A DNA stretch of 64,000 nt from Planctomycetota bacterium. GTDB taxonomy: Bacteria; Planctomycetota; PLA2; JAEUHO01. The notes under the pieces are model-generated. The model made no database searches, had not been told where the DNA came from, and saw nothing but the letters and a program-made list of their open reading frames with translations. The translations under genes and the position numbers were made by a program. The DNA lies in assembly GCA_965222115.1 (NCBI GenBank), contig CBDCTJ010000007.1, positions 1,504,001-1,568,000 of the forward strand, written 5' to 3'. Shown one piece after another: positions 804 to 17,212 of this stretch. Each line of letters starts with the position of its first letter. Position 1 is the first letter of the stretch.

Positions 804-830
804 TTGCGCGGCGTAAGGCAAGGGACGCCC

Positions 831-2141
831 ATGGCCCGTAATCAACGCACCGTACGCGGCGAAGCCAGCGTTACCGGCGTGGGGCTTCACACCGGTGCGT
901 CCACCACGCTCACCGTTACGCCCGCCGAGGCGAATCAGGGCGTCGTATTTGTTCGTAGTGATATGGACGGGGAGCCGCGCGTTCCCGTACACGTCGCCAG
1001 TTTGCGTCAACAGCAACGACGCACAACGCTGGTGGGGGATGCGGAAGCCGAAGTCCACACGGTAGAGCACTTCCTTAGTTGCATGCATGCGCTGGGTATC
1101 GACAACGCCACGGTACGCATTTCGGGTCCTGAGTGCCCCGGCATGGATGGCAGCGCGAGGCCCTTTCTCGACATGTTGGATGCCGCGGGCATCAAGGAGC
1201 AAGACGAGCCGCGTCAAGTGATTCGTTTAGATTCGCCGGTATCGGTTCAGACCGGTCCGCGTTGTTCGCTTTCGGCGCTTCCCACCGACGGCGAGTTTTC
1301 CGTGGCGTATACCCTTGAGTACGGCCACGTATACCTAGACACACAACACTTCTCGGCACGCGTGAATCCCGAGTCGTTTCGCAAACAAATTGCGGGCGCG
1401 CGCACGTTTTGTTTGGAAGAAGAGGCCCAAGCGCTACGCGACAACAACTTGGGTCTCGGTGCCACCTATGAGAACACGTTGGTTGTGGGCGACGAAGGCG
1501 TCATCAACAATGAGTTGCGTTGGCCGGATGAGTTTGCACGCCACAAAGCGCTCGACCTGATCGGTGATCTCTATTTGCTGGGTGCCGACCTTGAAGCCCA
1601 TGTGGTTGCACTACGCAGCGGTCACGCGGCCAACCTCGAACTGGTGCAGGCGATTTTGCGTCATGTGGAAGATCGTGAACGAACCGCCAAGGGCGATGAG
1701 CCCGCGCTGCGCCACGACCAAATCGTGCGCATCCTTCCCCATCGCTATCCCTTCCTCCTGGTGGATCGCGTTACCGAACTCGAGGGCTACACGCGTGCGG
1801 TGGGCATCAAGAACGTCAGTCTCAACGAGCCGTTTTTCCAAGGGCACTATCCCGGTGAGCCCATTATGCCTGGCGTACTCATTCTGGAGGCCATGGCCCA
1901 ACTTGCCGGCCTGCTGTTGCTACGAAAACTCGAACTTACGGGGAAGGTGCCCGTATTGCTCTCCATCGACCGCGTGAAGTTTCGCCGCGCAGTCGTGCCA
2001 GGCGACCAGATTCGACTGGAGGCGTTTACGATTCGTTTGTCGGGCGGGCGCGGACGCGTACGGTGTCGTTCCACGGTAGGGGGTGTTCGTGTTGCGGAGG
2101 CCCGCTTGAACTTTGCACTCACGGAGTCGTCGTCGGCATGA
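831..2141 (+). CDS. lpxC/fabZ: Bifunctional UDP-3-O-acyl-GlcNAc deacetylase / 3-hydroxyacyl-ACP dehydratase (LpxC-FabZ fusion)
   Basis: LpxC motifs QRT, GVGLHTG, TVEH, HKALDLIGDL; FabZ motifs LPHRYPFLLVD, FFQGHYP, MPGVLILEAMAQ. Confidence 0.95.
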   Translation: MARNQRTVRGEASVTGVGLHTGASTTLTVTPAEANQGVVFVRSDMDGEPRVPVHVASLRQQQRRTTLVGDAEAEVHTVEHFLSCMHALGIDNATVRISGPECPGMDGSARPFLDMLDAAGIKEQDEPRQVIRLDSPVSVQTGPRCSLSALPTDGEFSVAYTLEYGHVYLDTQHFSARVNPESFRKQIAGARTFCLEEEAQALRDNNLGLGATYENTLVVGDEGVINNELRWPDEFARHKALDLIGDLYLLGADLEAHVVALRSGHAANLELVQAILRHVEDRERTAKGDEPALRHDQIVRILPHRYPFLLVDRVTELEGYTRAVGIKNVSLNEPFFQGHYPGEPIMPGVLILEAMAQLAGLLLLRKLELTGKVPVLLSIDRVKFRRAVVPGDQIRLEAFTIRLSGGRGRVRCRSTVGGVRVAEARLNFALTESSSA

Positions 2142-4212: not shown

Positions 4213-4485
4213 CGCGCGCTTGTCCCCGCATTTTTGACCTATTTCGGTCAGTGGGAGGGACGATTTCGGGCCCGCGTCGCTGCGTGCGATGGCGGTCGTT
4301 TGAATTTGGTGGCCGCATCCGGCCGCCCGCACATCGGTGGTGGTCGCTTCGCAGGTTGTGACGCGTCCCGGTGGGTTGTACGTCTGCGTCATCATGTTGA
4401 TGAGTGCGTCGTGTGTTGCGGGCCCGGTCGATGCGCGTCGATGGAGAGTTGCGATGCAACGTATGCGACGTTCAAGGAGTCGGAC

Positions 4486-5538
4486 TTGTCTCAGATAACG
4501 CTCGACCAATTGCTGGAAAATGGCGTGCACTTTGGACACCGCGTGAGCCGGTGGAACCCGAAGATGAAACCCTTCATTCACGGCAAGCGCAATTCGATCC
4601 ACATTATTGATCTCAAGCAAACCGTACGCGGCCTCGTTCGTGCGCGGCATTACCTCCAGGGCATTGCGGCCGATGGTGGCCACATCCTTTGGGTGGGTAC
4701 CAAGCGCAGCGCCAAGGAATCGGTACGCAACATCGCCGTGCGCACGCGCCAGCCCTACGTTACCGAGCGTTGGCTGGGTGGCTGTTTGACCAACTACCGC
4801 ACCATTCGCAGTCGCCTCGGTCGTCTTGCCGAACTCGAAAAGCTCGCTGCCGACGGCACCATGGAGTTGCTCAAGAAGAAGGAGCAGGCGCGTCTTCGGA
4901 TTGAAGAAAAGAAGCTGCTCAAGAATCTCGGCGGCATTCGCGACCTCGAGCGTTTGCCCGCGTGTTTGGTCGTGGTCGATCCCAAGAATGAGCACATCGC
5001 CGTCGCCGAAGCCAACAAGATGCAGATTCCTGTCATCGCGTTGCTCGATACCGACTGCGATCCCGATTACGTCGACATTCCGATTCCCGCCAATGACGAC
5101 GCCATGCGCTCCGTCAATCTCCTGTTGTCGCTCCTCGCCGAAGCGGTTGAAGAGGGCAATAAGGTGTGGGCGGTCGTTGTTGCCGAGCAGGAGAAGATTG
5201 AAGCGGCCAAGCGTCGCGAAGAGGAAGGTCGACGCGAAGCCGAACGTCAGCGTCGCAAGGTCACCGAAGACTGGCAGGCACGTTTGCGTGCCGAGCGCAG
5301 CGGTGGCGGTGATGCGGCAACCGCAACGGCAACCGCAACCGCAACGGCAACAGGGCCCGGCGACGGAGAAACACCCGTCGCCGATGGCAGTTCGCCTGAA
5401 AGCAAAGCACCGGAAGGCGATGACGCTAAGCCGTCGGACGCGCCGGAAAGCAAGTCCGAAGCATCGGATAGCCAGTCGGATAGCAAGCCCGATGCGACCG
5501 AGAGCAAGCCCGACGCACCGGAAGGCGCCGCCGAGTAA
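4486..5538 (+). CDS. rpsB: 30S ribosomal protein S2 with long low-complexity C-terminal extension
   Basis: LLENGVHFGH, WNPKMKPFI, VGTK, RWLGG, DTDCDP, PANDDA; TTG start after AAGGAG RBS. The ORF-track start at 4234 is too far upstream. Confidence 0.97.
   Translation: MSQITLDQLLENGVHFGHRVSRWNPKMKPFIHGKRNSIHIIDLKQTVRGLVRARHYLQGIAADGGHILWVGTKRSAKESVRNIAVRTRQPYVTERWLGGCLTNYRTIRSRLGRLAELEKLAADGTMELLKKKEQARLRIEEKKLLKNLGGIRDLERLPACLVVVDPKNEHIAVAEANKMQIPVIALLDTDCDPDYVDIPIPANDDAMRSVNLLLSLLAEAVEEGNKVWAVVVAEQEKIEAAKRREEEGRREAERQRRKVTEDWQARLRAERSGGGDAATATATATATATGPGDGETPVADGSSPESKAPEGDDAKPSDAPESKSEASDSQSDSKPDATESKPDAPEGAAE
5317..5352 (+). repeat. 6 x 6-bp GCAACN microsatellite encoding (Ala-Thr)6 in the S2 tail
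   Basis: gcaacc gcaacg gcaacc gcaacc gcaacg gcaaca read directly. Confidence 0.85.
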
Positions 5539-7394: not shown

Positions 7395-7955
7395 ATGAGC
7401 CCCGATGACATCATGAAGGACGCAGAGAGCCGTATGGACGGCGCCGTCCAACACCTAACGAGCGAGCTCGCCGGATTGCGATCCGGTCGTGCCAGCCCGT
7501 CACTTGTGGACAAGCTCATGGTCTCGGCCTACGGCTCGGATACGCCGCTTAGCCAGCTGGCGCAAATCGGTTGCCCCGAGCCACGCCAGATCGTGATCAA
7601 GCCGTATGACCCGAGCATCTCCTCCGACATCGAAAAGGCCATCATGGCCTCCGACCTCGGCCTCAATCCGAGTTCCGACGGCAAGGTATTGCGCATCAAC
7701 ATTCCTCCGCTTAGCGAAGAACGCCGCAAGCAACTTGCCAAGGTCGTCAAGACCCAAGGCGAGGCCGCCAACGTATCCATCCGCAACGTCCGCCGCGACG
7801 CCAACAAAGCCGGCGACGCCGCCAAGGCCGACAAATCCCTCAGCGAAGACGACCTCGAGCGCCTCAAAAAGAGCATTCAGGAGCTGACCAAGCAATACGA
7901 GGGCAAGGTCTCGGCGCTCGTTGAGAAGAAGTCGAAGGCGTTGATGGAGGTGTAG
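7395..7955 (+). CDS. frr: Ribosome recycling factor
   Basis: LRSGRASP, LGLNP, IPPLSEERR, VSIRNVRRDAN. Confidence 0.97.
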   Translation: MSPDDIMKDAESRMDGAVQHLTSELAGLRSGRASPSLVDKLMVSAYGSDTPLSQLAQIGCPEPRQIVIKPYDPSISSDIEKAIMASDLGLNPSSDGKVLRINIPPLSEERRKQLAKVVKTQGEAANVSIRNVRRDANKAGDAAKADKSLSEDDLERLKKSIQELTKQYEGKVSALVEKKSKALMEV

Positions 7956-8003
7956 GACGCGCACATGGTCAGATGCGATACAGCAAGACGATTCGAAGGC
8001 CCG

Positions 8004-11000
8004 CTAGAATTCTAGGCCGTCGTTTTCAAACTGACCGCCGGAACCAAAATACTTCTCTATGAAATTGCGCACGACATCGAATCGCTTGTCGTCAGCGTGT
8101 GCTTTGCAGATTGAAAGAGCACTCTGAGCAGAGTCTATTCGGCTTTTAGCTTCCGAATTCGACACGTAGCGCACGCTGGCGTTCGCTAGCGCCTGGGCGT
8201 GCTCAAGTGCCATCTCGCGATCCTTGCCAAAATCGTGCTCCCCTCGAATGGCGGCGATGCGCCCGGCCATCTCGAGGCGCTCGGCCCCCGTTTCGTAGCG
8301 CGCGCTGGCGTTATACAGCGCCTTGGCGTGCTCAAGTGCCATCTCGCGATCCTTGCCAAAGTCGTGTTCCCCTCGAATGGCGGCGATGCGCCCGGCCATC
8401 TTGAGGCACTCGGCCCCGGTTTCGTAGCGCGCGCTGGCGTTATACAGCGCCTGGACGTGCTCAAGTGCCATCTCGCGATCCTTGCCAAAGTCATGTTCCC
8501 CTCGAATGGCGGCGATGCGCCCGGCCATCTCGAGGCACTCGGCCCCGGTTTCGTAGCTCACGCTGGCGTTATACAGCGCCTGGACGTGCTCAAGTGCCAA
8601 CTCGCGATCCTTGCCAAAGTCATGTTCCCCTCGAATGGCGGCGATGCGCCCGGCCATCTCGAGGCACTCGGCCCCGGTTTCGTAGCGCGCGCTGGCGTTC
8701 ATGAGCGCCCCGACGTGCCGAAGTGCCAACTCAGGATCCTTGCCAAAGTCGTGTTCCCCTCGAATGGCGGCGATGCGCCCGGCCATCTCGAGGCGCTCGG
8801 CCCCGGTTTCGTAGCTCACGCTGGCGTTCATGAGCGCCTTGGCGTGCACAAGTGCCAACTCAGGATCCTTGCCAAAGTCGTGTTCCCCTCGAATGGCGGC
8901 GATGCGCCCGGCCATCTCGAGGCACTCGGCCCCGGTTTCGTAGCTCACGCTGGCGTTCATGAGCCCGTTGGCGACTGCTCGAGCCTCTACTTTAGCGTTT
9001 TCATTGTCACGAGATTGCTCAAATGCCGCGTGCCCCGAAATTGCGGCGATGCGGATGGACCTAAGCTCGACTGAGGAGACTTCATCTGCCGTCTCGACAT
9101 GTTCACTGGGATACGCGCATGCAGTTAGCGCCAGCAACCATGCCGAGTCTCTGGCAGCCCCCAGCCTAGCAGCGTCCGCCAACTTTGAGATGGCCAACAA
9201 TTCGTCGTCTTCGTCTTCCGTGGCCGTTGCCTCAAGCGTGTGCTGCCAAGCCTCGCGGAACGCGCTCGGTCCGAAACCAATAACGAGTTCTGCCCAACGT
9301 TTGGCCGGCGTTGGAGCCATGCGGAGCCCATGGTGTACAACACCCTTGTCTTCGCCGCCAGCCATGCCAAGTGAAGCTGCGATGATGTAGTGACGAAATG
9401 AGTCGGGTGCCAAGGCGTAAGATTTGTCGTTGCCATGCTCGTCGCGCTCACAGGAAATGATGTCACGATCTGACAGCCGCCCAAGTAGTGCTACGTGGTC
9501 GGCAAGTGAGTCGGGGAGAGAGGCAACCTCAACACTCCCAAGCACGGCCAAGCTTCGTAGTACGAACCGCGTATGTTCGGCTGATTGATCTTCCTTAACG
9601 AACAAGGGGGCCAGCATTTTACGGTACGAGGCAGCGAAAATACTGTGAGGTCCGCTGAGGCCATCAAGGGCGGATATCCCGGATCCAACTACCAAGTTCG
9701 CTGCGTGAATAGATGCCAGGATGTTTCCCTTAGTCTTGTCAACGAGCACTACGACTTGATGGGTAGTGAGGGAAGGAACTAGATTGCCAACAAACTGCTC
9801 AAGGGCGTTTCGAGTCTTGCTGCCAACGTTGGATAACTCGTGGAACGACCATTCCTTAACGTTGTTTAGACCATTCCGAGTTGCTCGCGCTTGAATCGGC
9901 CATGAGTTCACAAGTAATTTGATGCGCGGCAGATCGCTTACTGAATCCGTCGTCACGTCGGAGACGTAGCTAGCTAGCTTCTGTGCAAACTCGTACTCCG
10001 TGTTGAGGTTGTCCCATACCAAGAGCAACTGCCCGCAAGCCGACACCCTTCGCCACGGATCCAAAACGGATGCTGGATCTCGCGAGGATGAAAGACCGCT
10101 TTCTCGAAGAAACGCCACTTCCCAACCCATCGCTTGTGCCCAGTCGGCGACTCGGAGGCAGAGTCGCGACTTGCCGACACCAACTGGTGCGTGCATATAC
10201 ATGCCCACGAGGTCGGGGTCATTTAGAAACGCGTGAACACGTTCGCGCCATTCGGTCCGGCCCAGCACGGTATCCCGAACCAATCTCGCCCGAGTTGGGT
10301 CTGCAAGCAGTTTCTTGATGGATACTTCGTCGGGTCTGCGGTGCTTCCAGTACCGTTCCTCGAATTTCGAACGTGGTAAAACGAAGTCGGTAAGAACGCG
10401 GTGTATGCGATCGGTGCGTTCGGAGATGGCCGTAATTGACCGTGTGAGACCATCGATTCGGGCCTCGGTGCGTTGAACTCTCTGCAACAATTCAATATGG
10501 CGATTTCTCGCCTCGTAGCTCATTGCCGAGAACGCATCGTTCATCGCCGAGAAGATCTGTTCTGAACGAGATTCCAGTTGCGTGAACAACTGATTCAGTC
10601 GCCTTCGATGGTCTTCATGCTCTATCGACAAGCCCTTGAAGCCCTCTTCTTGCGCCTTTCCCAGCGCGAGGACTTCCGTGTCGAGCTGTGCCAAGTACAT
10701 GAGCAATGCGCCAGCAAATGCTCGCCCTCCGCCATCGCCTGCGTCCCACTTCAGAACTTCTCGAAGTGCACCAGCGAAACGCGCGTCTGCGTTTTTGGCG
10801 AAGACCTTGGAGAGCGTGGAAACGCCCGCACCCTTACGTCCTAGAGCGGAGGACCAGAGTTCGCCGAAGAAATCGCTCCAACCAGCTTCGTCGCGGACCA
10901 CGTTCTGTGGCTGCGTGGTGGAAGCGGTTGGAGCTTGTTCAATCTCAGTAAACCGTGTGAGCATCCGCGGAACATGCGCTTCCAGAAGCTCGGGCGTCAC

Positions 11001-11393
11001 GCCCGCGGACAGTTGTTGTTCAACGAAGGTGGAGAAGGCATCCGGCAGTTCCTTCTCAAGTTTGTGTGAAGCATCCTCAGCAGAACCGTCTATGAGTTCG
11101 TCTGATCGAAGTGACTCCAAGACGGCGCGCAACGCCAACCCGATGGCTTGCGTCAGGTCGTGATTACGAAAGAGTTCATCGGCCTTTGGGACGTGGTCGA
11201 GCTTCTCGATCCGCTTTCCAAACCACCCCGCGAGTGGCCCTGCTAATCCCCCAACCGCAGCCGCTGCAGCGGCGCCCAGCGGATTGCTGGCCCCGAGGAC
11301 GACCGAGAGGCCAGCCAGTGCGGCCGAAGCGCCAATCGCAATTCCCTTGGCAGAGGCCAAGAGGCCGGCGGGCAACGAAGGGCGGACCATCAA
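8004..11393 (-). CDS. STAND/NLR-like P-loop NTPase with N-terminal helical/hydrophobic domain and C-terminal 43-aa tandem helical repeats
   Basis: Walker A-like APVGVGKS, Walker B-like LLLVWDN; Gly/Ala-rich hydrophobic N-terminus; coiled coil; six near-identical C-terminal repeats. Confidence 0.75.
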   Translation of the reverse strand: MMVRPSLPAGLLASAKGIAIGASAALAGLSVVLGASNPLGAAAAAAVGGLAGPLAGWFGKRIEKLDHVPKADELFRNHDLTQAIGLALRAVLESLRSDELIDGSAEDASHKLEKELPDAFSTFVEQQLSAGVTPELLEAHVPRMLTRFTEIEQAPTASTTQPQNVVRDEAGWSDFFGELWSSALGRKGAGVSTLSKVFAKNADARFAGALREVLKWDAGDGGGRAFAGALLMYLAQLDTEVLALGKAQEEGFKGLSIEHEDHRRRLNQLFTQLESRSEQIFSAMNDAFSAMSYEARNRHIELLQRVQRTEARIDGLTRSITAISERTDRIHRVLTDFVLPRSKFEERYWKHRRPDEVSIKKLLADPTRARLVRDTVLGRTEWRERVHAFLNDPDLVGMYMHAPVGVGKSRLCLRVADWAQAMGWEVAFLRESGLSSSRDPASVLDPWRRVSACGQLLLVWDNLNTEYEFAQKLASYVSDVTTDSVSDLPRIKLLVNSWPIQARATRNGLNNVKEWSFHELSNVGSKTRNALEQFVGNLVPSLTTHQVVVLVDKTKGNILASIHAANLVVGSGISALDGLSGPHSIFAASYRKMLAPLFVKEDQSAEHTRFVLRSLAVLGSVEVASLPDSLADHVALLGRLSDRDIISCERDEHGNDKSYALAPDSFRHYIIAASLGMAGGEDKGVVHHGLRMAPTPAKRWAELVIGFGPSAFREAWQHTLEATATEDEDDELLAISKLADAARLGAARDSAWLLALTACAYPSEHVETADEVSSVELRSIRIAAISGHAAFEQSRDNENAKVEARAVANGLMNASVSYETGAECLEMAGRIAAIRGEHDFGKDPELALVHAKALMNASVSYETGAERLEMAGRIAAIRGEHDFGKDPELALRHVGALMNASARYETGAECLEMAGRIAAIRGEHDFGKDRELALEHVQALYNASVSYETGAECLEMAGRIAAIRGEHDFGKDREMALEHVQALYNASARYETGAECLKMAGRIAAIRGEHDFGKDREMALEHAKALYNASARYETGAERLEMAGRIAAIRGEHDFGKDREMALEHAQALANASVRYVSNSEAKSRIDSAQSALSICKAHADDKRFDVVRNFIEKYFGSGGQFENDGLEF
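8166..8957 (-). repeat. Six near-identical 129-bp (43-aa) tandem repeats plus a partial seventh
   Basis: Anchor g(ctc/ccg/cac)aagtgc recurs at 8201, 8330, 8459, 8588, 8717, 8846 (period 129); unit NAS[VA][SR]YETGAE[CR]L[EK]MAGRIAAIRGEHDFGKD[PR]E[LM]ALxHxxAL[MYA]. Confidence 0.97.
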
Positions 11394-11540
11394 TCAGTTT
11401 CCTCATTCATGTGGGGGGCATTCTATTTCATGGCCGAGCGTCCGGCAATCTGAGCACCACTACGAGAAGCAGGATAAATGTTCGCTCTATCTTCCCTGTA
11501 CGCTTGTCAAATGGCAGGCAATCACGCAGGCGATTCGCGA

Positions 11541-12047
11541 ATGCTTGAGGACACGCGCCTCAATTCGAAACGCCTCCACCTTCGCCCATGGCTCCCTGAA
11601 GACGTCGCGTCCTTTCACGAAATCTGGGGTGACCCCGAAGTCATTTGGTGGGGCGCAAGCGAGTCGTTGGCGAAGACGCGAGAAGGATTCACGGCGCTGC
11701 TAGAGCGGCATGCGGATTGGCCGGACGGAGTGGGTTGGTTTGCAGTGACTCGCAAAGCGGACGTTACGAATGAAATCCTTGGGGACGTGTTGCTTCAACC
11801 CGCACGATTTGTGGACGGCATTGAGGTTGGATGGCACTTCAAGCGCAGTGCGTGGGGAAAGGGATACGCAACGGAGGCAGCGTCGTGTGTGCTCAACTAT
11901 GCGAAGGACACACTCAAGATCGATCCTGTATACGCCATCGTTGCTACGCAAAACGACCGCTCATTGCGTGTCGTGAAGAAGCTCGGCATGGAGCGTGTGC
12001 GTGAGATGGTGTATGCAGACTTGCCGCACATTTTGTTTGCAAGCTAG
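11541..12047 (+). CDS. GNAT-family N-acetyltransferase (RimJ/RimL-like)
   Basis: RLHLRPW, EVGW, WGKGYATEAA, NDRSLRVVKKLGM. Confidence 0.9.
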   Translation: MLEDTRLNSKRLHLRPWLPEDVASFHEIWGDPEVIWWGASESLAKTREGFTALLERHADWPDGVGWFAVTRKADVTNEILGDVLLQPARFVDGIEVGWHFKRSAWGKGYATEAASCVLNYAKDTLKIDPVYAIVATQNDRSLRVVKKLGMERVREMVYADLPHILFAS

Positions 12048-12070
12048 CGCTCGATCATGCTGTTCGCACG

Positions 12071-12757
12071 CTAACGTTCGAGCACGTCGACCGACCAGTC
12101 AACGAGTGCGGAGGACACGGCGTTGAGATTCTCCTGCGTTCGATTGGAATCGCCATGAGTGTCCTCAAACCCATGATCGCCCTCCGTGACGATGATTTGA
12201 GGTGGTGCCGCGCGTGAGCCAATGAGTGACTCGATTGAGTCAACGTGGCAGGAGGGGTCGGAACGTCCGAAACCAATGAACAGCGGTGTTTGAATCGCAC
12301 CAAAGTCTTCCTTGCTCATAAGTAGTTGTCCCGGTTCATGAGGCACGTGAATCGGTGGTGTTAACAGCGCGGTGCCAACAAGGGGAGGCTCCATGGAGCG
12401 GGCATGAGCCAGCACCACGCGGCTTCCCAACGACTTTCCGGCCACAAACCACGTGGCGTTGCCCGTGATCGACTTGGCATAGTTGACAGCAGCTTGCAAA
12501 TCGCCGACTTCTGGTACGAGGTCAGTTGATGGGTTATTCCCAGCCGTAAAGTAGGCCCAGTCAAATCGCAGAACGTGGAATCCGGCCTCTACAAGCAAGC
12601 GGCTCATCGTTTCAAACAATGGCAAACGCATGTGATAGCCGCGCCCCGGTGCCAGGATGAAACCGGCGCCACGCGGGCGTGATGGCGTACTAAAACATCC
12701 CACCAATTCATGCCCGTGCTCGGTAGGAATGCGCACGTCGTGGGCGTCGGTAGCCAT
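12071..12757 (-). CDS. Alpha/beta-fold hydrolase
   Basis: GKSLG nucleophile elbow, GRSD and GDH catalytic Asp/His candidates, LRFDW. Confidence 0.8.
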   Translation of the reverse strand: MATDAHDVRIPTEHGHELVGCFSTPSRPRGAGFILAPGRGYHMRLPLFETMSRLLVEAGFHVLRFDWAYFTAGNNPSTDLVPEVGDLQAAVNYAKSITGNATWFVAGKSLGSRVVLAHARSMEPPLVGTALLTPPIHVPHEPGQLLMSKEDFGAIQTPLFIGFGRSDPSCHVDSIESLIGSRAAPPQIIVTEGDHGFEDTHGDSNRTQENLNAVSSALVDWSVDVLER

Positions 12758-12852
12758 CTACGCATCGTACGAGCATTGCTTCGGCGCTGCCACGACCTTG
12801 CCATCGTGGGCGTTTCCACCGAGGATTGCGGCGATACGCATGGAGACGATTG

Positions 12853-15399
12853 GTGGCAACACGTGCCCATTTCACGCCGGGACAACTCTTAGAGGGCGAC
12901 TTCGGCAAGTACGAAGTGCTTGGCAAGCTTGGGGAAGGCGGAATGGGGTCGGTCTACCGGGCGCGCAATCTCAACTTGGGCGACGACGTTGTGATCAAGG
13001 TACCCGACGTTGCGGGTCTGGACTTGGACACCGCCAACGCATTTCGCACGCGCTTTGCGCGCGAAATCGATCGACTGATTGGCTTTCGCCATCTCCACAT
13101 CGTGCGCATTCACGGACGCGGTGAAGTGGACGGATTGCCGTTTTGTATCCTCGATTACCTCGCGGGCGGTTCCCTAAAGGACAAGCTGTCTGCGTTGGGT
13201 CGCTCGCAGACCGTGAGCGAAGTCCTCGCATGGGCTGTACCGATTGCGAAGGCGCTCGACTTTCTGCATGAACGCGACATCATTCATCGCGATGTCAAGC
13301 CCGGGAACATTTTGCTCGACGAGCATGATCACGCATTTCTTGGGGACTTCGGTATCTCCAAGTCAACGTCGAAGGGTGTAACGGCAGAAACCGACCTCAC
13401 GCGCACAGGCGGCGCCATTGGGTCGGCGGGCTACATGGCGCCGGAGCAAACCAAAGCGGAGGGCGTGACCGGCGCCGCGGATCAGTATGCGCTGGCCGCA
13501 ACGGTCTACAGCGCACTTGCGGGCTATCCGCCGTTCCTTGAGAAGACGCGCAGTGAGTATGAGTTGATCGTGCTCAAGGCGATGGAGAAGCCGGCGTTGC
13601 TTTCCACGCAAACACGCGCGGTGTCTGAACCCGTGGCGTCGGTGGTCGCCAAAGGACTTGCTACACAACCGAGTCAACGCTTCTCCTCGTGTCGTGATTT
13701 TGTGAAGGCGCTCATCAAGGCCCAGCAACAGCGAGGCGCGACGGGTGCACCGGCGCGCGTAACAACGTCGTCGCACTCGCGATCACGACCGTCGCCGAGA
13801 GCTACAACACGACCGAAGCGTAAGTCTCAAGCATTTGATCCGCGCGATCGAGCGAGGCCAACCCGCGCGCCGGTTTGGCCATGGATTGCCGCGTTGTTGT
13901 TGGTGGGTGCCGGTGCGGCGGTGTACTTCGGCGGTGTGTTTGACTCGTCGAAGAACAAGAGCGAGGATTCGGCGAAGGTTGAGTCGTCCATTGCGCCAGG
14001 CGACGAAACGACAACGCCTGAGAAGCGTCGCGATAACACGTCGCCACCAACGAACGCGTCGAGTTCGGATTCCGCCGCGAATCCAATGTCGAACGAGGGG
14101 AAGCCTACGGTTCCCCCCGATTCCTCTTCGCCACCCAAATGGGCGGCATCGCTTGCCTCCGCAGTAAAGCACCTTGAGCAAGGCGATTTACGCCGCGCGT
14201 CGAGTCTTCTCGGCCAAGCCGTGACGGCAGGCATCCCTGTCAACGAAATTCCAACGAATCTTCGCGAGGCTGTGGACGCGTGGCGCGCGCCGCCGCAGAT
14301 CCACATTGTATCCCCGGATCATGGTCTCGAAGTCGATGCGACGTTCGTTGCTGTGGAGGGTGAGCTTCGGGCTGCGCGTGCAACTGATGCGTTGTTCGTC
14401 AACGGCTTTGAAGTGCGAAAGGGGCCGGGCCCATTTCGTTATCGTGCGCGCCTCCCTGGGCCGGGCGGTCACAATGTCGTGTTTGAAGTGCGCGATGACG
14501 GTGAACAACGTGGCGCTTCAATAACACGTCGCGTCGTCGTTCCGGAGCCCATCCCCGATCCGTCTACGTGGGCTTATGTATCGAGTCTGCAGAAAGCGCT
14601 GGCGAAGAAGATGGGCGTCCCCGTCGCGTTCGAGAACTCGCACGGCATGCGCTTTGTGTTCATTCCCAAGGGTGCGTTCAAGATGGGGTCGCCGTCGTCT
14701 GAGAAGCATCGGCACAAACACGAAGGGCCGCAACACGATGTCCTCATGCCGCACGGCTTCTATATGCAGATTACGGAGATGACCAACGAGCAGTGGCACC
14801 GATTTTCGTCTACGCATCAAGGGGGATTTGAGGGCAAGCGCAAACCCGTTGAACACATCAGCCATGAGGAGATCGCGGGTAAGAGAGGCAACGGGCGCGG
14901 CGGGTATCTGAAATGGCTCAACGGGCTTGACCGTTCACGGAGCGAACCCAGGGGCATTGTGTATGCGCTGCCGACCGAGGCGGAGTGGGAATATGCCTGC
15001 CGCGCTCGAACGACGTCCGCCTACGCATTCGGTAAAGGGATCTCAACCAAACTGGCGAACTATGACGGGCGCCCCGGTCCGTTTCGTAAAGAGAACACCG
15101 GCATCTATCGGGGCAAGACGGTAGACGTTGGGACGCTGGGTCGCAATGCGTGGGGGCTTTACGACATGCATGGCAATGTGGCGGAGTGGTGCGCGGACTG
15201 GCACGCCATGAAGACCTATACAGCGCGTGCGCGTAGCAACCCGACCGGGCCTGAGTCTGGCACGCAGCGTGTAATTCGTGGCGGTTCGTTCGTCAGCCCA
15301 CCCGATCAATTGCGTTCTGCGTCGCGAAAGAGCCACGCGCCCGAGGCGCGCTTCACAAGTGTTGGCTTCCGGCTCGTAGGCCGCATTCCTACCAAGTAA
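12853..15399 (+). CDS. Ser/Thr protein kinase with transmembrane segment and C-terminal FGE-sulfatase (SUMF1/CLec) domain
   Basis: LGEGGMG, VVIK, HRDVKPGN, DFG, YMAPEQ; TM WIAALLLVGAGAAVYF; FKMGSP, LPTEAEWEYACRA, NAWGLYDMHGNVAEW, RGGSF, GFRL. Start uncertain. Confidence 0.92.
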   Translation: MATRAHFTPGQLLEGDFGKYEVLGKLGEGGMGSVYRARNLNLGDDVVIKVPDVAGLDLDTANAFRTRFAREIDRLIGFRHLHIVRIHGRGEVDGLPFCILDYLAGGSLKDKLSALGRSQTVSEVLAWAVPIAKALDFLHERDIIHRDVKPGNILLDEHDHAFLGDFGISKSTSKGVTAETDLTRTGGAIGSAGYMAPEQTKAEGVTGAADQYALAATVYSALAGYPPFLEKTRSEYELIVLKAMEKPALLSTQTRAVSEPVASVVAKGLATQPSQRFSSCRDFVKALIKAQQQRGATGAPARVTTSSHSRSRPSPRATTRPKRKSQAFDPRDRARPTRAPVWPWIAALLLVGAGAAVYFGGVFDSSKNKSEDSAKVESSIAPGDETTTPEKRRDNTSPPTNASSSDSAANPMSNEGKPTVPPDSSSPPKWAASLASAVKHLEQGDLRRASSLLGQAVTAGIPVNEIPTNLREAVDAWRAPPQIHIVSPDHGLEVDATFVAVEGELRAARATDALFVNGFEVRKGPGPFRYRARLPGPGGHNVVFEVRDDGEQRGASITRRVVVPEPIPDPSTWAYVSSLQKALAKKMGVPVAFENSHGMRFVFIPKGAFKMGSPSSEKHRHKHEGPQHDVLMPHGFYMQITEMTNEQWHRFSSTHQGGFEGKRKPVEHISHEEIAGKRGNGRGGYLKWLNGLDRSRSEPRGIVYALPTEAEWEYACRARTTSAYAFGKGISTKLANYDGRPGPFRKENTGIYRGKTVDVGTLGRNAWGLYDMHGNVAEWCADWHAMKTYTARARSNPTGPESGTQRVIRGGSFVSPPDQLRSASRKSHAPEARFTSVGFRLVGRIPTK

Positions 15400-15418
15400 C
15401 GCCCCGGTCAGGCACGGT

Positions 15419-16540
15419 CTACTTCTCCGTATTCCACGCCGACAGCCATCGCGTTCCGGCGCGCTTGTAGCCTAGTTTCTCGATTAGATCCTTCTCAATG
15501 CCAGGAAGGTGTGCAGCACCGTAGAAGATGGCGATGCTGTCCTTGGCACCAAGCTTGGCCATCTGCTCTTTGACGCGCCTCGTAACGATGTCATTGCGCT
15601 TGGTGAGCAACAGTTCTGCGGTGTCGGGCATGGTGACGTTCATCATCTTGAGCATGTCTACCGAGCCCATGACCTCGGCGAACTTATTCTTCATCATGCG
15701 CCGCATCGGACCCCCTTGATCGCCCTTGCCAATGAGCATGTCGAGCAGGGGGCCGGCCACTTTGAGCAACCCTTGCAACGTGGCCGCCTGTCCGGTGATT
15801 TTGGCTGCCGCACCCTTCGGCTTCGTTGGCGCTGCCTTGCCGTTTTTTCCAGGTGGCGTCGTTGGTGTGTCCGACTTGGAAGATGGCGTAGTGGGTTTCG
15901 TATCGACCGGTGCCTTGCCACCACCCATGAACTCTTCTGCTGTCATGTCGGCATGCACAAAGTGGGGGCGGTTGTAGTTAATGGCTTCCAACTGAAACGC
16001 CATCCCGAACCATTTCGCCATCTTGGTTTGTAGCTCGCGAATCGGGTTCATCTCGGTGGGTGCCGACTCGAGCGCCTCATGCATCTTTGCGTTCTTTGGC
16101 TTGATGCCCTCGTACAAGACAACGGTGGCATCTTCCAAGATGCGTTGAACATCTCGGTAAAACTCTTTCTCGGCAATGTGAACGGCCCCGATCAAATCGA
16201 CACGTGCCTTTCCATCGGGATGCACATACGTCGTAACACCCACATGCAATCCAGCGGGAAGTTTGCCCGGCTTACTCGTGGTGACATGGCGCATGTGTCG
16301 TGAGTTGTCGGCGGTTGGCTTTGCGCGCGAAATGGTGCGGACGTCATCACGTTTGAATGTGAGCGTGTCGCCTGCCGGCAAGAGGATCTCCACCTCGGTC
16401 TCGCGTTCTTCAAGCACAACGCCGCGAACCGCCGTTCCGCCGTTGAGAACAATCTCGTCGGCGTAGGACGACGAGAGTGAAAAGAGTGACAACAGGAGTG
16501 AGGCGCCAAGCGCACGCGAAATGGGTCGATTCATAGCCAT
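15419..16540 (-). CDS. Secreted TraB/GumN-like protein
   Basis: Signal peptide; LIGAVHIA, VLYEG, KRND, IAIFYGAAHL motifs typical of the TraB/PrgY/GumN fold. Confidence 0.6.
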   Translation of the reverse strand: MAMNRPISRALGASLLLSLFSLSSSYADEIVLNGGTAVRGVVLEERETEVEILLPAGDTLTFKRDDVRTISRAKPTADNSRHMRHVTTSKPGKLPAGLHVGVTTYVHPDGKARVDLIGAVHIAEKEFYRDVQRILEDATVVLYEGIKPKNAKMHEALESAPTEMNPIRELQTKMAKWFGMAFQLEAINYNRPHFVHADMTAEEFMGGGKAPVDTKPTTPSSKSDTPTTPPGKNGKAAPTKPKGAAAKITGQAATLQGLLKVAGPLLDMLIGKGDQGGPMRRMMKNKFAEVMGSVDMLKMMNVTMPDTAELLLTKRNDIVTRRVKEQMAKLGAKDSIAIFYGAAHLPGIEKDLIEKLGYKRAGTRWLSAWNTEK

Positions 16541-16642
16541 AGTCTCACCCGACACGCGGGGTTGTGAGCGATCGCGCCCTGCAGGGCTCGCCCAACCGCA
16601 AACCTTTGCAAGTTGGCTATTGTTGTTGTTTGATTCAGACCT

Positions 16643-17212
16643 ATGCCTAGGAAATCGGATCGAGCGCGCTGGAACGCCAAGTACTTGGCGCGGGGGCCCA
16701 GCGTCGGTGAGCCCCATCCGTTTGTCGTACAAACCGTTCCATCCATGCCCGGACGTGCGCTTGATCTCGCCGGCGGCGCGGGGCGGCATGCTCTTTACGT
16801 CGCGTCGCAAGGATGGGAGACGACGCTGCTAGACGTCTCGGATGTGGGTCTTGCCCATGCCCGGCAACATGCCTCCGAAATGGGGATATCGCTCACGACC
16901 GTTCAGCGAGACCTGGAACGCTACGGCGTGCCGGAAGGCGCATGGAATTTGGTCGTATGCGTTCACTATTCATTCGGTACCAGGCTGTCGCACCTGCCTT
17001 CGTTGGTCGCGCCGGGGGGGCATCTCGTCTTTGTCCAAGCCACAACGACCAATCTTGAGCGACACGAACGACCTTCACGAAAGTACCTGGTGGCGCCGGG
17101 AACAGCCCGCCGCGTTTTGGGCTCAGGGCTACGAGTCCTGATCGACGACGAGGGATGGGACGCGACCGATCGCCACGAGTCGCGACTCCTGCTTCATCGC
17201 GACAACCAGTAA
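16643..17212 (+). CDS. Class I SAM-dependent methyltransferase (TehB-like)
   Basis: RWNAKY, ALDLAGGAGRHA, LDVS, PGG. Confidence 0.85.
   Translation: MPRKSDRARWNAKYLARGPSVGEPHPFVVQTVPSMPGRALDLAGGAGRHALYVASQGWETTLLDVSDVGLAHARQHASEMGISLTTVQRDLERYGVPEGAWNLVVCVHYSFGTRLSHLPSLVAPGGHLVFVQATTTNLERHERPSRKYLVAPGTARRVLGSGLRVLIDDEGWDATDRHESRLLLHRDNQ

Follow-up and report, generated by a model that had tools for sequence, protein, structure and literature searches.

Bacterial receptors of the STAND type (signal transduction ATPases with numerous domains) sense phage proteins, and the evolution of their specificity is mostly unknown. In part of their preprint, Dyrka et al. report that some bacterial NB-ARC and NACHT proteins carry WD or tetratricopeptide repeats (TPRs) whose units are 80-90% identical within a protein, and propose that these diversify rapidly, as they do in fungi (bioRxiv 10.1101/2020.01.06.895854); near-identical repeats in STAND proteins are therefore known as a kind. 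Here we describe a gene with such repeats in a stretch of 64,000 nucleotides, hereafter the window, from a Planctomycetota bacterium (contig CBDCTJ010000007.1, positions 1,504,001 to 1,568,000; assembly GCA_965222115.1). The gene occupies positions 8004..11393 of the window on the minus strand, and its frame is open for 1129 amino acids (aa) from a TTG at 11393; this frame is used for residue numbering throughout. Its product would be a single-gene receptor resembling NOD-like receptors (NLRs), in which a STAND ATPase with a nucleotide-binding oligomerisation domain (NOD) acts as a switch between a C-terminal repeat sensor and a membrane-damaging N-terminal output. We give this whole mechanism a probability of about 0.5, and regard the architecture with its hypervariable repeat surface, taken alone, as very probable.

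The candidate sensor consists of six 129-bp (43-aa) repeats at 8184-8957 (minus strand, aa 813-1070), running from R1 (8829-8957) to R6 (8184-8312). Tandem Repeats Finder reports one array at 8165-8957, with a period of 129, 6.1 copies, 94% matches and no indels, and pairwise nucleotide identity among the six units is 87.6-97.7%. Twenty nucleotide columns vary across the units, 15 of them non-synonymously and five synonymously, and ten codons are variable (4, 5, 12, 14, 32, 34, 37, 39, 40 and 43). An earlier note made from the letters of the window alone (the sequence-only reading) had listed variants at positions 4-5, 12, 32, 37, 39-40 and 43, all of which are present; it overlooked codons 14 (E to K in unit 5) and 34 (L/L/L/M/M/M across units). 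It had also described the variants as assorting in a mosaic way, and this mosaic is real, since all four gametes are found in 20 of 105 biallelic site pairs. The repeat unit was sought across the genome and occurs nowhere outside this gene. Mutagenesis by a diversity-generating retroelement (DGR) was considered as a source of the variants and rejected, as there is no reverse transcriptase among the neighbouring genes and the variable columns involve all four bases with no adenine bias.

In an AlphaFold2 (AF2) model of aa 331-1129, built from 21 aligned sequences with a mean predicted local distance difference test (pLDDT) score of 80, each unit is an alpha-hairpin, with helix A at positions 9-23 and helix B starting at position 32 and reaching into the next unit as far as position 5; the repeats mostly score above 90. 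They are preceded by a helical arm with degenerate repeat-like units (8958..9353, minus strand, aa 681-812), which is helical in the model but poorly modelled at aa ~726-795 (pLDDT <50), and in which the unit directly before R1 matches the repeat consensus at 50 of 129 nucleotides. The array is followed by a C-terminal cap (8007..8183, minus strand, aa 1071-1129) of one degenerate unit and a tail, this seventh unit matching the consensus at 40 of 129 nucleotides.

The positions at which the six units differ recur across the repeat family. For this comparison, 23 arrays of at least four units each were placed in one register, and cap units less than 60% identical to the array consensus were dropped. 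Among the 22 other arrays, variation is found at positions -7, -4 and -1 without exception, at position 4 in 21 arrays, at position 5 in 20 and at position 12 in 19; scaffold positions 15, 16, 19, -9, -5 and -3 vary in three to six arrays only. The ten variable positions of this gene have a mean entropy of 0.96 bits in the other arrays versus 0.41 for the remaining 26 positions (permutation P=1.7e-4). In a smaller test, the five positions that vary in at least five of six other arrays all lie within this gene's ten (hypergeometric P=5e-4).

Selection on these positions was gauged by crude Nei-Gojobori proportions of non-synonymous (pN) and synonymous (pS) differences, with codons 4, 5, -7, -4 and -1 taken as hot. 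In this gene, pN and pS are 0.428 and 0.049 at the hot codons and 0.030 and 0.106 at the other 38. The 11-unit array of a homologue in genome G214 gives 0.331 and 0.132 at the hot codons, and 0.046 and 0.261 at the 33 codons outside a wider eight-position hot set; the corresponding values for the eight-unit array of a homologue in genome G226 are 0.318 and 0.171, and 0.042 and 0.037. At the five hot positions pN exceeds pS in all three arrays measured. If helix B is taken as ideal, these five positions point 92-152 degrees away from its hydrophobic moment, and the conservatively variable sites 34 (L/M) and 39 (A/V) lie nearer to it. The variable residues are thus predicted to form a stripe along helix B, facing away from its hydrophobic side and extending into the turn between helix B and the following helix A; position 12 of the predicted stripe would sit at the start of helix A. 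Their placement is non-random, as the sequence-only reading had supposed of a recognition surface: they coincide with the family-wide hypervariable positions and project off the hydrophobic face of one helix.

Relatives of the protein are few and remote. Searched exhaustively with HMMER, 1.84 billion representatives yielded 33 distant relatives of aa 1-790 (best E 2.7e-19, 32% identity). An offset-identity scan of the 13 NOD relatives (P0002-P0014) found nine with C-terminal repeats of 40-42 aa, neighbouring units being 74-100% identical. These repeats are homologous to those of this gene, and the signature that they share opens with N-A-T/S, has a C/R site at position 12 and A..RI within helix A, and closes with E-I-A-L..A.A-L ahead of the following N. 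A profile of three arrays, run against 5.8 billion proteins (longer ones only), matched 28 proteins of 808-1326 aa at E<=1e-6. None of these is informatively named, and by a simple pattern 11 of the 28 carry the same N-terminal module, marked by an NHDL motif, as described below. The repeats are of a rare alpha-hairpin type of 40-44 aa with an AL-x-NAT signature. In two of the 28 (P0046 and P0054) the AL-x-NAT repeats stand behind an N-terminal ParA/CbiA-like P-loop ATPase and a TPR-like region, without a STAND NOD. Pfam searches of 23 further family members returned no recognisable alternative effector domain, and many sub-threshold matches on the repeats were spurious.

The distribution of the family is patchy. 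With each species represented by one genome, 11 loci were found, in five Planctomycetota metagenome-assembled genomes (MAGs), one record labelled Fimbriimonas ginsengisoli, two 'uncultured bacterium' MAGs and three Alphaproteobacteria, the last at 28-30% identity. Clear family matches were present in five of 400 other genomes of the phylum, with 84 other matches confined to the P-loop region. The gene was found in none of 40 genomes of closer relatives, where the whole protein gave one weak repeat match only. Word-indexed protein searches, with the whole protein or with the alignment of the NOD family (A1), returned only the protein itself, probably because the low-complexity N-terminus swamped the word list.

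Known repeat classes did not account for the units. TPRs were sought, including TPR_10 and TPR_12, and no Pfam TPR model matched at E<=1; comparison with hhalign against the TPR arrays of NB-ARC relatives gave a probability of 0.04, and TPR membership was rejected on these two results. A sequence search of the PDB with the repeat region reached a best E of 0.94, for an unrelated polymerase. The NCBIfam model XopAD/skwp (NF041399) matches aa 760-1084 (E 4e-10), at 37.6 bits versus a cut-off of 2000, and the match recurs in only one of ten relatives tested (E 1.2e-3), so that membership was rejected here too. SKWP repeats are described as HEAT/armadillo repeats of 40-42 aa (PMC4617103), and the similarity may serve as a lead on the class of the repeats, not as a sign of membership. 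Two further repeat arrays were seen in the same genome (G000). The first, at C3:141052-142700, is a coding array of 12.6 copies of 126 bp with 72% identity; its product of ~740 aa is a canonical 42-residue TPR protein that has a hydrophobic N-terminus and lacks an NTPase. The second, at C7:2359814-2360791, has 3.0 copies of a 323-bp unit at 100% identity with no long frame covering it, and may have arisen in assembly or by duplication in the very recent past.

Near-identical records of two relatives differ from one another by whole units. Three records in one 90% cluster (P0006, P0035 and P0036) have identical first 690 aa, followed by 8, 7 and 9 units respectively, the first degenerate unit counted; their lengths are 1018, 978 and 1058 aa, and one record has a recombinant junction unit. 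Two different records, P0061 and P0066, have an identical 750-aa prefix and an identical 101-aa suffix, and all of their 19 substitutions and a 41-aa unit indel fall inside the array, in which the order of units differs and one record has a unit variant absent from the other. Unit number or order differs in two of the four multi-member 90% clusters of relatives (those of P0006 and P0061); within the other two (P0042 and P0044), members do not differ in length and show one or two substitutions. The variation in repeat number and order that the sequence-only reading had expected is thus seen in some relatives and is lacking in others. The G214 array includes an exactly duplicated two-unit block. 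In the G226 array (L005 4586-4704) one unit has 119 nucleotides instead of 120, which breaks the frame, and a further break lies upstream of 3866; the G226 homologue may therefore be a pseudogene or contain a sequencing error in the array. Overall, the differences in units and their reordering fit unequal crossing-over and gene conversion, and mis-assembly of repeats may mimic some of this pattern.

The array of the present gene was compared with public short-read contigs from four runs (one study, two samples), which may be the source of the assembly itself. These contigs match both flanks of the array without difference; the array itself (8225-8935) is broken in them into exactly matching pieces of 54-81 nucleotides, and none bridges it in any of the four runs. 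Local unit variants are confirmed by the short reads, and the number and order of units are taken from the assembly. We consider it extremely unlikely that unit number and order are artefacts of assembly, as the breaks in all four runs and the frame-shifting 119-nucleotide unit of G226 might suggest: the frame is open across all units without indels, the short pieces agree exactly with the assembled variants, the contig is 3.07 Mb long, and homologous arrays occur in 28 proteins.

The centre of the protein (9354..10373, minus strand, aa ~341-680) is predicted to be a STAND-type NOD, with a five-stranded P-loop domain, a helical domain and a winged helix in the AF2 model. Both nucleotide-binding motifs named in the sequence-only reading are present. 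The Walker A motif APVGVGKS (10167..10190, minus strand, aa 402-409) conforms to the pattern [AG]xxxxGK[ST], and its G405, G407 and K408 are invariant in A1, which comprises 14 sequences of the NOD family. The Walker B motif LLLVWDN (10008..10028, minus strand, aa 456-462) contains the invariant D461, and has Asn in place of the second acidic residue; in A1 this residue is D in eight sequences, N in three (this protein included), T in two and S in one. STAND motifs, as reportedly laid out by Leipe and colleagues in 2004, include hhGRxxE ahead of the P-loop and, within the helical domain, GxP. A GR..E motif is present upstream of the P-loop as LGRTEW, with R379 invariant in A1, and W498 of a TSWP strand is invariant as well. 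The GxP motif reads G-N-I here, the Pro being kept in ten of the 14 sequences. Because of WDN at Walker B and G-N-I at GxP, the protein appears somewhat degenerate at two STAND hallmark sites.

Assignment to the STAND class was a point on which the sequence-only reading depended, and relatives and predicted fold both support it, so that we take the NTPase to be of STAND type. NOD relatives match the Pfam families AAA_16, ATPase_2, nSTAND_NTPase5 (nSTAND5) and nSTAND3, and three exceed a Pfam cut-off (P0012 with AAA_16 at 35.2 bits; P0022 and P0033 with nSTAND5 at 38.4 and 37.4 bits). The NOD of the AF2 model mostly has a pLDDT of 70-96, its winged helix includes a beta-hairpin, and the order of its subdomains is that of STAND proteins. 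Searched with Foldseek, the PDB yielded 110 matches of E<=1e-3, headed by STAND proteins: SAMD9 (1.5e-7), NLRP14/9/2/7, the archaeal STAND-TPR protein 6mfv, EfAvs5 (1.7e-5) and MalT, together with Avs3 (1.9e-4), NOD2 and NLRC4, and with ORC/Cdc6 lower in the list. Sequence identity to the matched structures is 8-12%. Neighbours by protein language model are nSTAND5, nSTAND3 and NPHP3_N clusters (scores 0.89-0.95), nSTAND5 being present in 11-15% of the members of neighbours scoring 0.94-0.95. Judged by hidden Markov models (HMMs), the NOD is neither NACHT nor NB-ARC, and is nearest to the loosely defined AAA_16/nSTAND5 set.

The N-terminal part also has the hydrophobic and helical character that the sequence-only reading had given it. 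A Gly/Ala-rich hydrophobic segment (11214..11372, minus strand, aa ~8-60; Kyte-Doolittle 19-residue maximum 1.92) could be a membrane hairpin or a latent membrane-inserting helix, and an equivalent segment, with a Kyte-Doolittle 19-residue mean of at least 1.6, is present in 17 of 22 N-domain proteins. It is followed by a helical bundle (10644..11186, minus strand, aa ~70-250) with the motifs RNHDL (aa 76-80, 11154-11168) and 'ALRE.LK.D', and by long helices resembling a coiled-coil linker (10374..10643, minus strand, aa ~251-340). In an alignment of 23 sequences (A3), N77 and L80 are invariant and the hydrophobic Gly/Ala-rich start, 'LRNHDL' and 'ALRE.LK.D...G.AFA' are shared. In the AF2 model, block values of pLDDT across aa 81-240 are mostly 74-94, dipping to 53-63 around aa 151-170, and the helices at 224-337 have 58-77; aa 1-69 score below 50.

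Thirteen relatives match aa ~20-340 alone. Above the Pfam cut-off, four of them have an NB-ARC and three a NACHT domain, several with TPRs. Named relatives of the module come from the filamentous cyanobacteria Arthrospira/Limnospira, Kamptonema and Ancylothrix, and one planctomycete NB-ARC-TPR protein (L031) carries it too. The module thus appears to be a swappable unit that heads three kinds of STAND NTPase, and on this account it looks like an NLR output domain. Three short proteins of 307-384 aa (P0021, P0031 and P0032) consist of the NHDL module and coiled coil only, and may be stand-alone effectors or truncated calls. No Pfam family, HeLo and NNH included, covers the module, either in this protein at E<=1 or in 32 relatives at E<=0.01, and Foldseek against the PDB and a wider structure search returned only generic helical hairpins; as a lead only, one Atlas neighbour of a homologue is an NNH2 cluster (score 0.85). 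Other bacterial defence systems use transmembrane effectors. By analogy with these and with the HeLo, CC and Bell domains, and from its hydropathy, we infer that the module may act on membranes.

Taken together, these parts suggest a mechanism in which the C-terminal alpha-solenoid of six 43-aa hairpin repeats would serve as sensor. Unequal crossing-over and gene conversion would keep the repeats nearly identical, and selection would drive apart five to eight fixed solvent-facing positions (4, 5, 12, -7, -4 and -1), with a rapidly re-assortable ligand-binding stripe as the result. The NOD would hold the protein off until the sensor bound its ligand, upon which nucleotide-dependent oligomerisation would follow. 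The N-terminal module, with its hydrophobic segment, 'NHDL' bundle and long helices, would be the output, most likely acting by membrane damage when modules cluster and so leading to abortive infection or cell death. Binding of ligands by the stripe, oligomerisation, action on membranes and a phage or other invader as the origin of the ligand are each inferred steps.

Several observations weigh against this mechanism. The protein reaches no Pfam cut-off (best AAA_22 at 12.5 bits and NPHP3_N at 12.3 bits, E~0.2), its Walker B lacks the second acidic residue and its GxP reads G-N-I. The pN and pS values rest on five codons with few synonymous sites, gene conversion breaks the assumptions of the method, and in G226 the non-hot codons have pN close to pS; the unit differences between records, moreover, could be errors of assembly. 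PADLOC-DB 2.0 has no match for this protein (best LeoBC, E 0.52) or for its G214 homologue, and 215 pattern matches in viral contigs yielded no relative. The GC content is ordinary (56.7% in the non-repeat part of the gene versus 58.7+-2.7% for the genome). Neighbours were scanned with Pfam at 13 family loci (the window, L028-L031, L037-L040 and L042-L045; L046 was left out), and known defence genes lie near one of them and mobile-element genes near three, the rest being housekeeping; linkage to defence islands is therefore weak. The single defence neighbourhood is that of the G214 homologue, which adjoins type I restriction R and S genes, an IS21 IstB gene and a GHKL-ATPase/metallophosphatase pair; of the other mobile-element loci, one has a phage-type integrase nearby and one a transposase. 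For the immune receptor proposed in the sequence-only reading, then, the STAND domain and the variable surface stand, and the immune role does not gain from PADLOC or from gene neighbourhoods.

Three other explanations bear on the same evidence. The protein might be a non-immune STAND signalling or scaffold protein, like MalT, AfsR or SAMD9, with the N-terminus as membrane anchor and the repeats binding an endogenous partner. Such a role would agree with the housekeeping or metabolic neighbours at most loci, the silence of PADLOC, the presence of MalT and ORC/Cdc6 among the fold matches, and the two proteins in which the same repeats accompany a ParA/CbiA-like N-terminal ATPase in place of the STAND NOD. 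However, neither Pfam nor NCBIfam finds a DNA-binding or enzymatic output domain, and an endogenous partner leaves unexplained the fixed hypervariable positions with pN above pS, the reshuffling of arrays between otherwise identical records and the very patchy distribution; we therefore hold this explanation to be unlikely. It is decidedly unlikely, in our judgement, that the array is simply young and evolving in concert, its differences being tolerated changes at unconstrained surface positions with no adaptive diversification or role in recognition. The whole-array pN/pS of 0.78, the small number of variable sites (20), the near-equality of pN and pS at the non-hot codons of G226 and the general lack of constraint on solenoid surfaces are all in its favour, but other exposed helix positions (e.g. 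33, 1, 11 and 18) are invariant in this array, between 19 and 22 of 22 independent arrays vary at the same five or six positions, where entropy reaches 1.7 bits, and the excess of pN over pS at hot positions is found in every array measured.

An immune-type receptor could also serve a conflict other than phage defence, namely kin recognition or allorecognition, as fungal HET-D/E NLRs do, or the control of a resident mobile element. Architecture and repeat behaviour resemble those of the fungal NLRs whose repeats have high internal conservation (HIC), as far as the comparison in part of the same preprint goes (bioRxiv 10.1101/2020.01.06.895854), the N-module is common to NLR-like proteins of filamentous cyanobacteria, and the linkage to defence islands is weak; no partner gene is adjacent, however, because the gene is monocistronic, the evidence would serve phage sensing just as well, and we consider a function of this kind very unlikely. 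An NLR-like receptor with a re-assortable sensor and a membrane-damaging output is the account that we prefer.

The start of the gene is probably the ATG at 11390, which would give 1128 aa: it lies 8 nucleotides after GAGGAA, and the database copy P0001 has 1128 aa. The gene stands alone, convergent with frr (7395-7955) and divergent from a GNAT gene. The sequence-only reading was right about the convergence with frr; uppS, which it expected to follow, lies ~500 kb away on the same contig. In two of five same-family genomes examined (L024 and L026), frr is directly followed by a TraB/PrgY-like gene. The window has that gene at 15419-16810, separated from frr by a 7.4-kb segment (7956-15418) with the STAND, GNAT, alpha/beta-hydrolase and kinase-FGE genes. 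The segment is therefore variable, frr adjoining the TraB-like gene in those two relatives. No tRNA was found in positions 1-30000 of the window, and no tRNA or integrase was seen within 7956-15418; recent horizontal transfer by composition was rejected, the GC content being ordinary and positions 1-30000 lacking a tRNA.

Some neighbouring genes deserve mention in their own right. At 12826-15399 (plus strand), an 857-aa protein fuses a Ser/Thr kinase to an FGE-sulfatase-like domain; its kinase part matches PADLOC PD-T4-6 models (E 7e-65), which may reflect generic kinase similarity. A single open reading frame (ORF) of 445 aa at 804-2141 (plus strand) combines LpxC (aa 14-285) with a FabA/FabZ-like dehydratase (aa 311-433), and is a fused lipid A/fatty-acid gene. 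The rpsB ORF at 4234-5538 (plus strand) is listed with 434 aa and has its S2 domain at aa 93-308 only, suggesting either an over-called TTG start or long protein extensions. Between the STAND homologue and IS21 IstB in G214 (L028 4427-8280) lie two paired genes, for a 771-aa ATPase of the GHKL type (HATPase_c_3) and a 513-aa calcineurin-like phosphoesterase, which could be another defence pair.

As a broader reading, put forward tentatively, these proteins possibly form a rare and hitherto undescribed family of bacterial NLR-like receptors, present chiefly in Planctomycetota MAGs and to a lesser extent in Alphaproteobacteria. Their recognition surface would consist of a new hairpin repeat of 40-44 aa, AL-x-NAT, and the shuffling of its near-identical units would re-tune specificity within populations through about six selected positions; the family would be a bacterial counterpart of HET-D/E, and its output a new death module, active on membranes and also used by the NB-ARC and NACHT receptors of cyanobacteria. 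It offers a compact case of a fixed scaffold with six hypervariable positions per unit, whole-unit differences between otherwise identical genes, and an output module that three STAND classes and two phyla have in common. Should ligands bind to the stripe, specificity would be readable and re-programmable unit by unit, and the N-module would give the bacterial NLR repertoire a candidate membrane-acting death domain. In our literature searches and in passages of PMC8195603 and of a 2026 STAND survey (bioRxiv 10.64898/2026.01.04.697583), whose supplements may list the clade among the survey's 589, no description was found of the AL-x-NAT repeat type, the NHDL N-module or shared hypervariable positions in bacterial STAND repeats.

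Compared with known systems, the protein shares with Avs1-5, bNACHT and SAMD9 a single-gene STAND organisation, a predicted NOD of nucleotide-binding, helical and winged-helix domains, and a C-terminal helical sensor, but it matches no PADLOC model and is only 8-12% identical to the matched structures. The sensors of Avs proteins are not known to consist of near-identical tandem repeats. The models nSTAND_NTPase5 (PF25199, cut-off 34 bits) and AAA_16 (PF13191) pick up distant relatives of the NOD, whereas this protein matches neither at E<=1. Its repeats resemble those of TPR_10/TPR_12 and SKWP/XopAD proteins in having two helices within 40-44 aa and in building a solenoid, although no Pfam TPR model matches them and the hhalign probability is 0.04. 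The N-module is all-helical with a hydrophobic first segment, as are HeLo, HELL, Bell, CC and NNH1-3, and like them it heads different NLR-type NTPases and also occurs in short ORFs (307-384 aa). It differs from HeLo, NNH and the others in having no Pfam model or fold match and in its length of ~250-340 aa; the Bell domain has ~100 aa, according to the part of the preprint that treats it (bioRxiv 10.1101/2020.01.06.895854).

The closest comparison is with the fungal HIC NLRs (HET-E, HET-D and the Podospora TPR, ANK and WD NLRs) and the bacterial proteins of Dyrka et al. Here the repeat is not WD, ANK or a detectable TPR, the NOD is not NACHT or NB-ARC by HMM but nearest to AAA_16 and nSTAND5, and the host lineage is not of the filamentous type, the named relatives being mostly from Planctomycetota MAGs. 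The effector-NOD-repeats layout is nevertheless the same, and so is the behaviour of the repeats. HIC repeats have units ~85% or more identical, few variable positions and a non-synonymous excess at these; all three features are found here, the units being 88-98% identical with variation at few positions, and between near-identical records of two relatives units appear to be shuffled and to change in number. If the stripe does bind ligands, bacteria too would be covered by the fungal model, in which receptors diversify as their repeats recombine.

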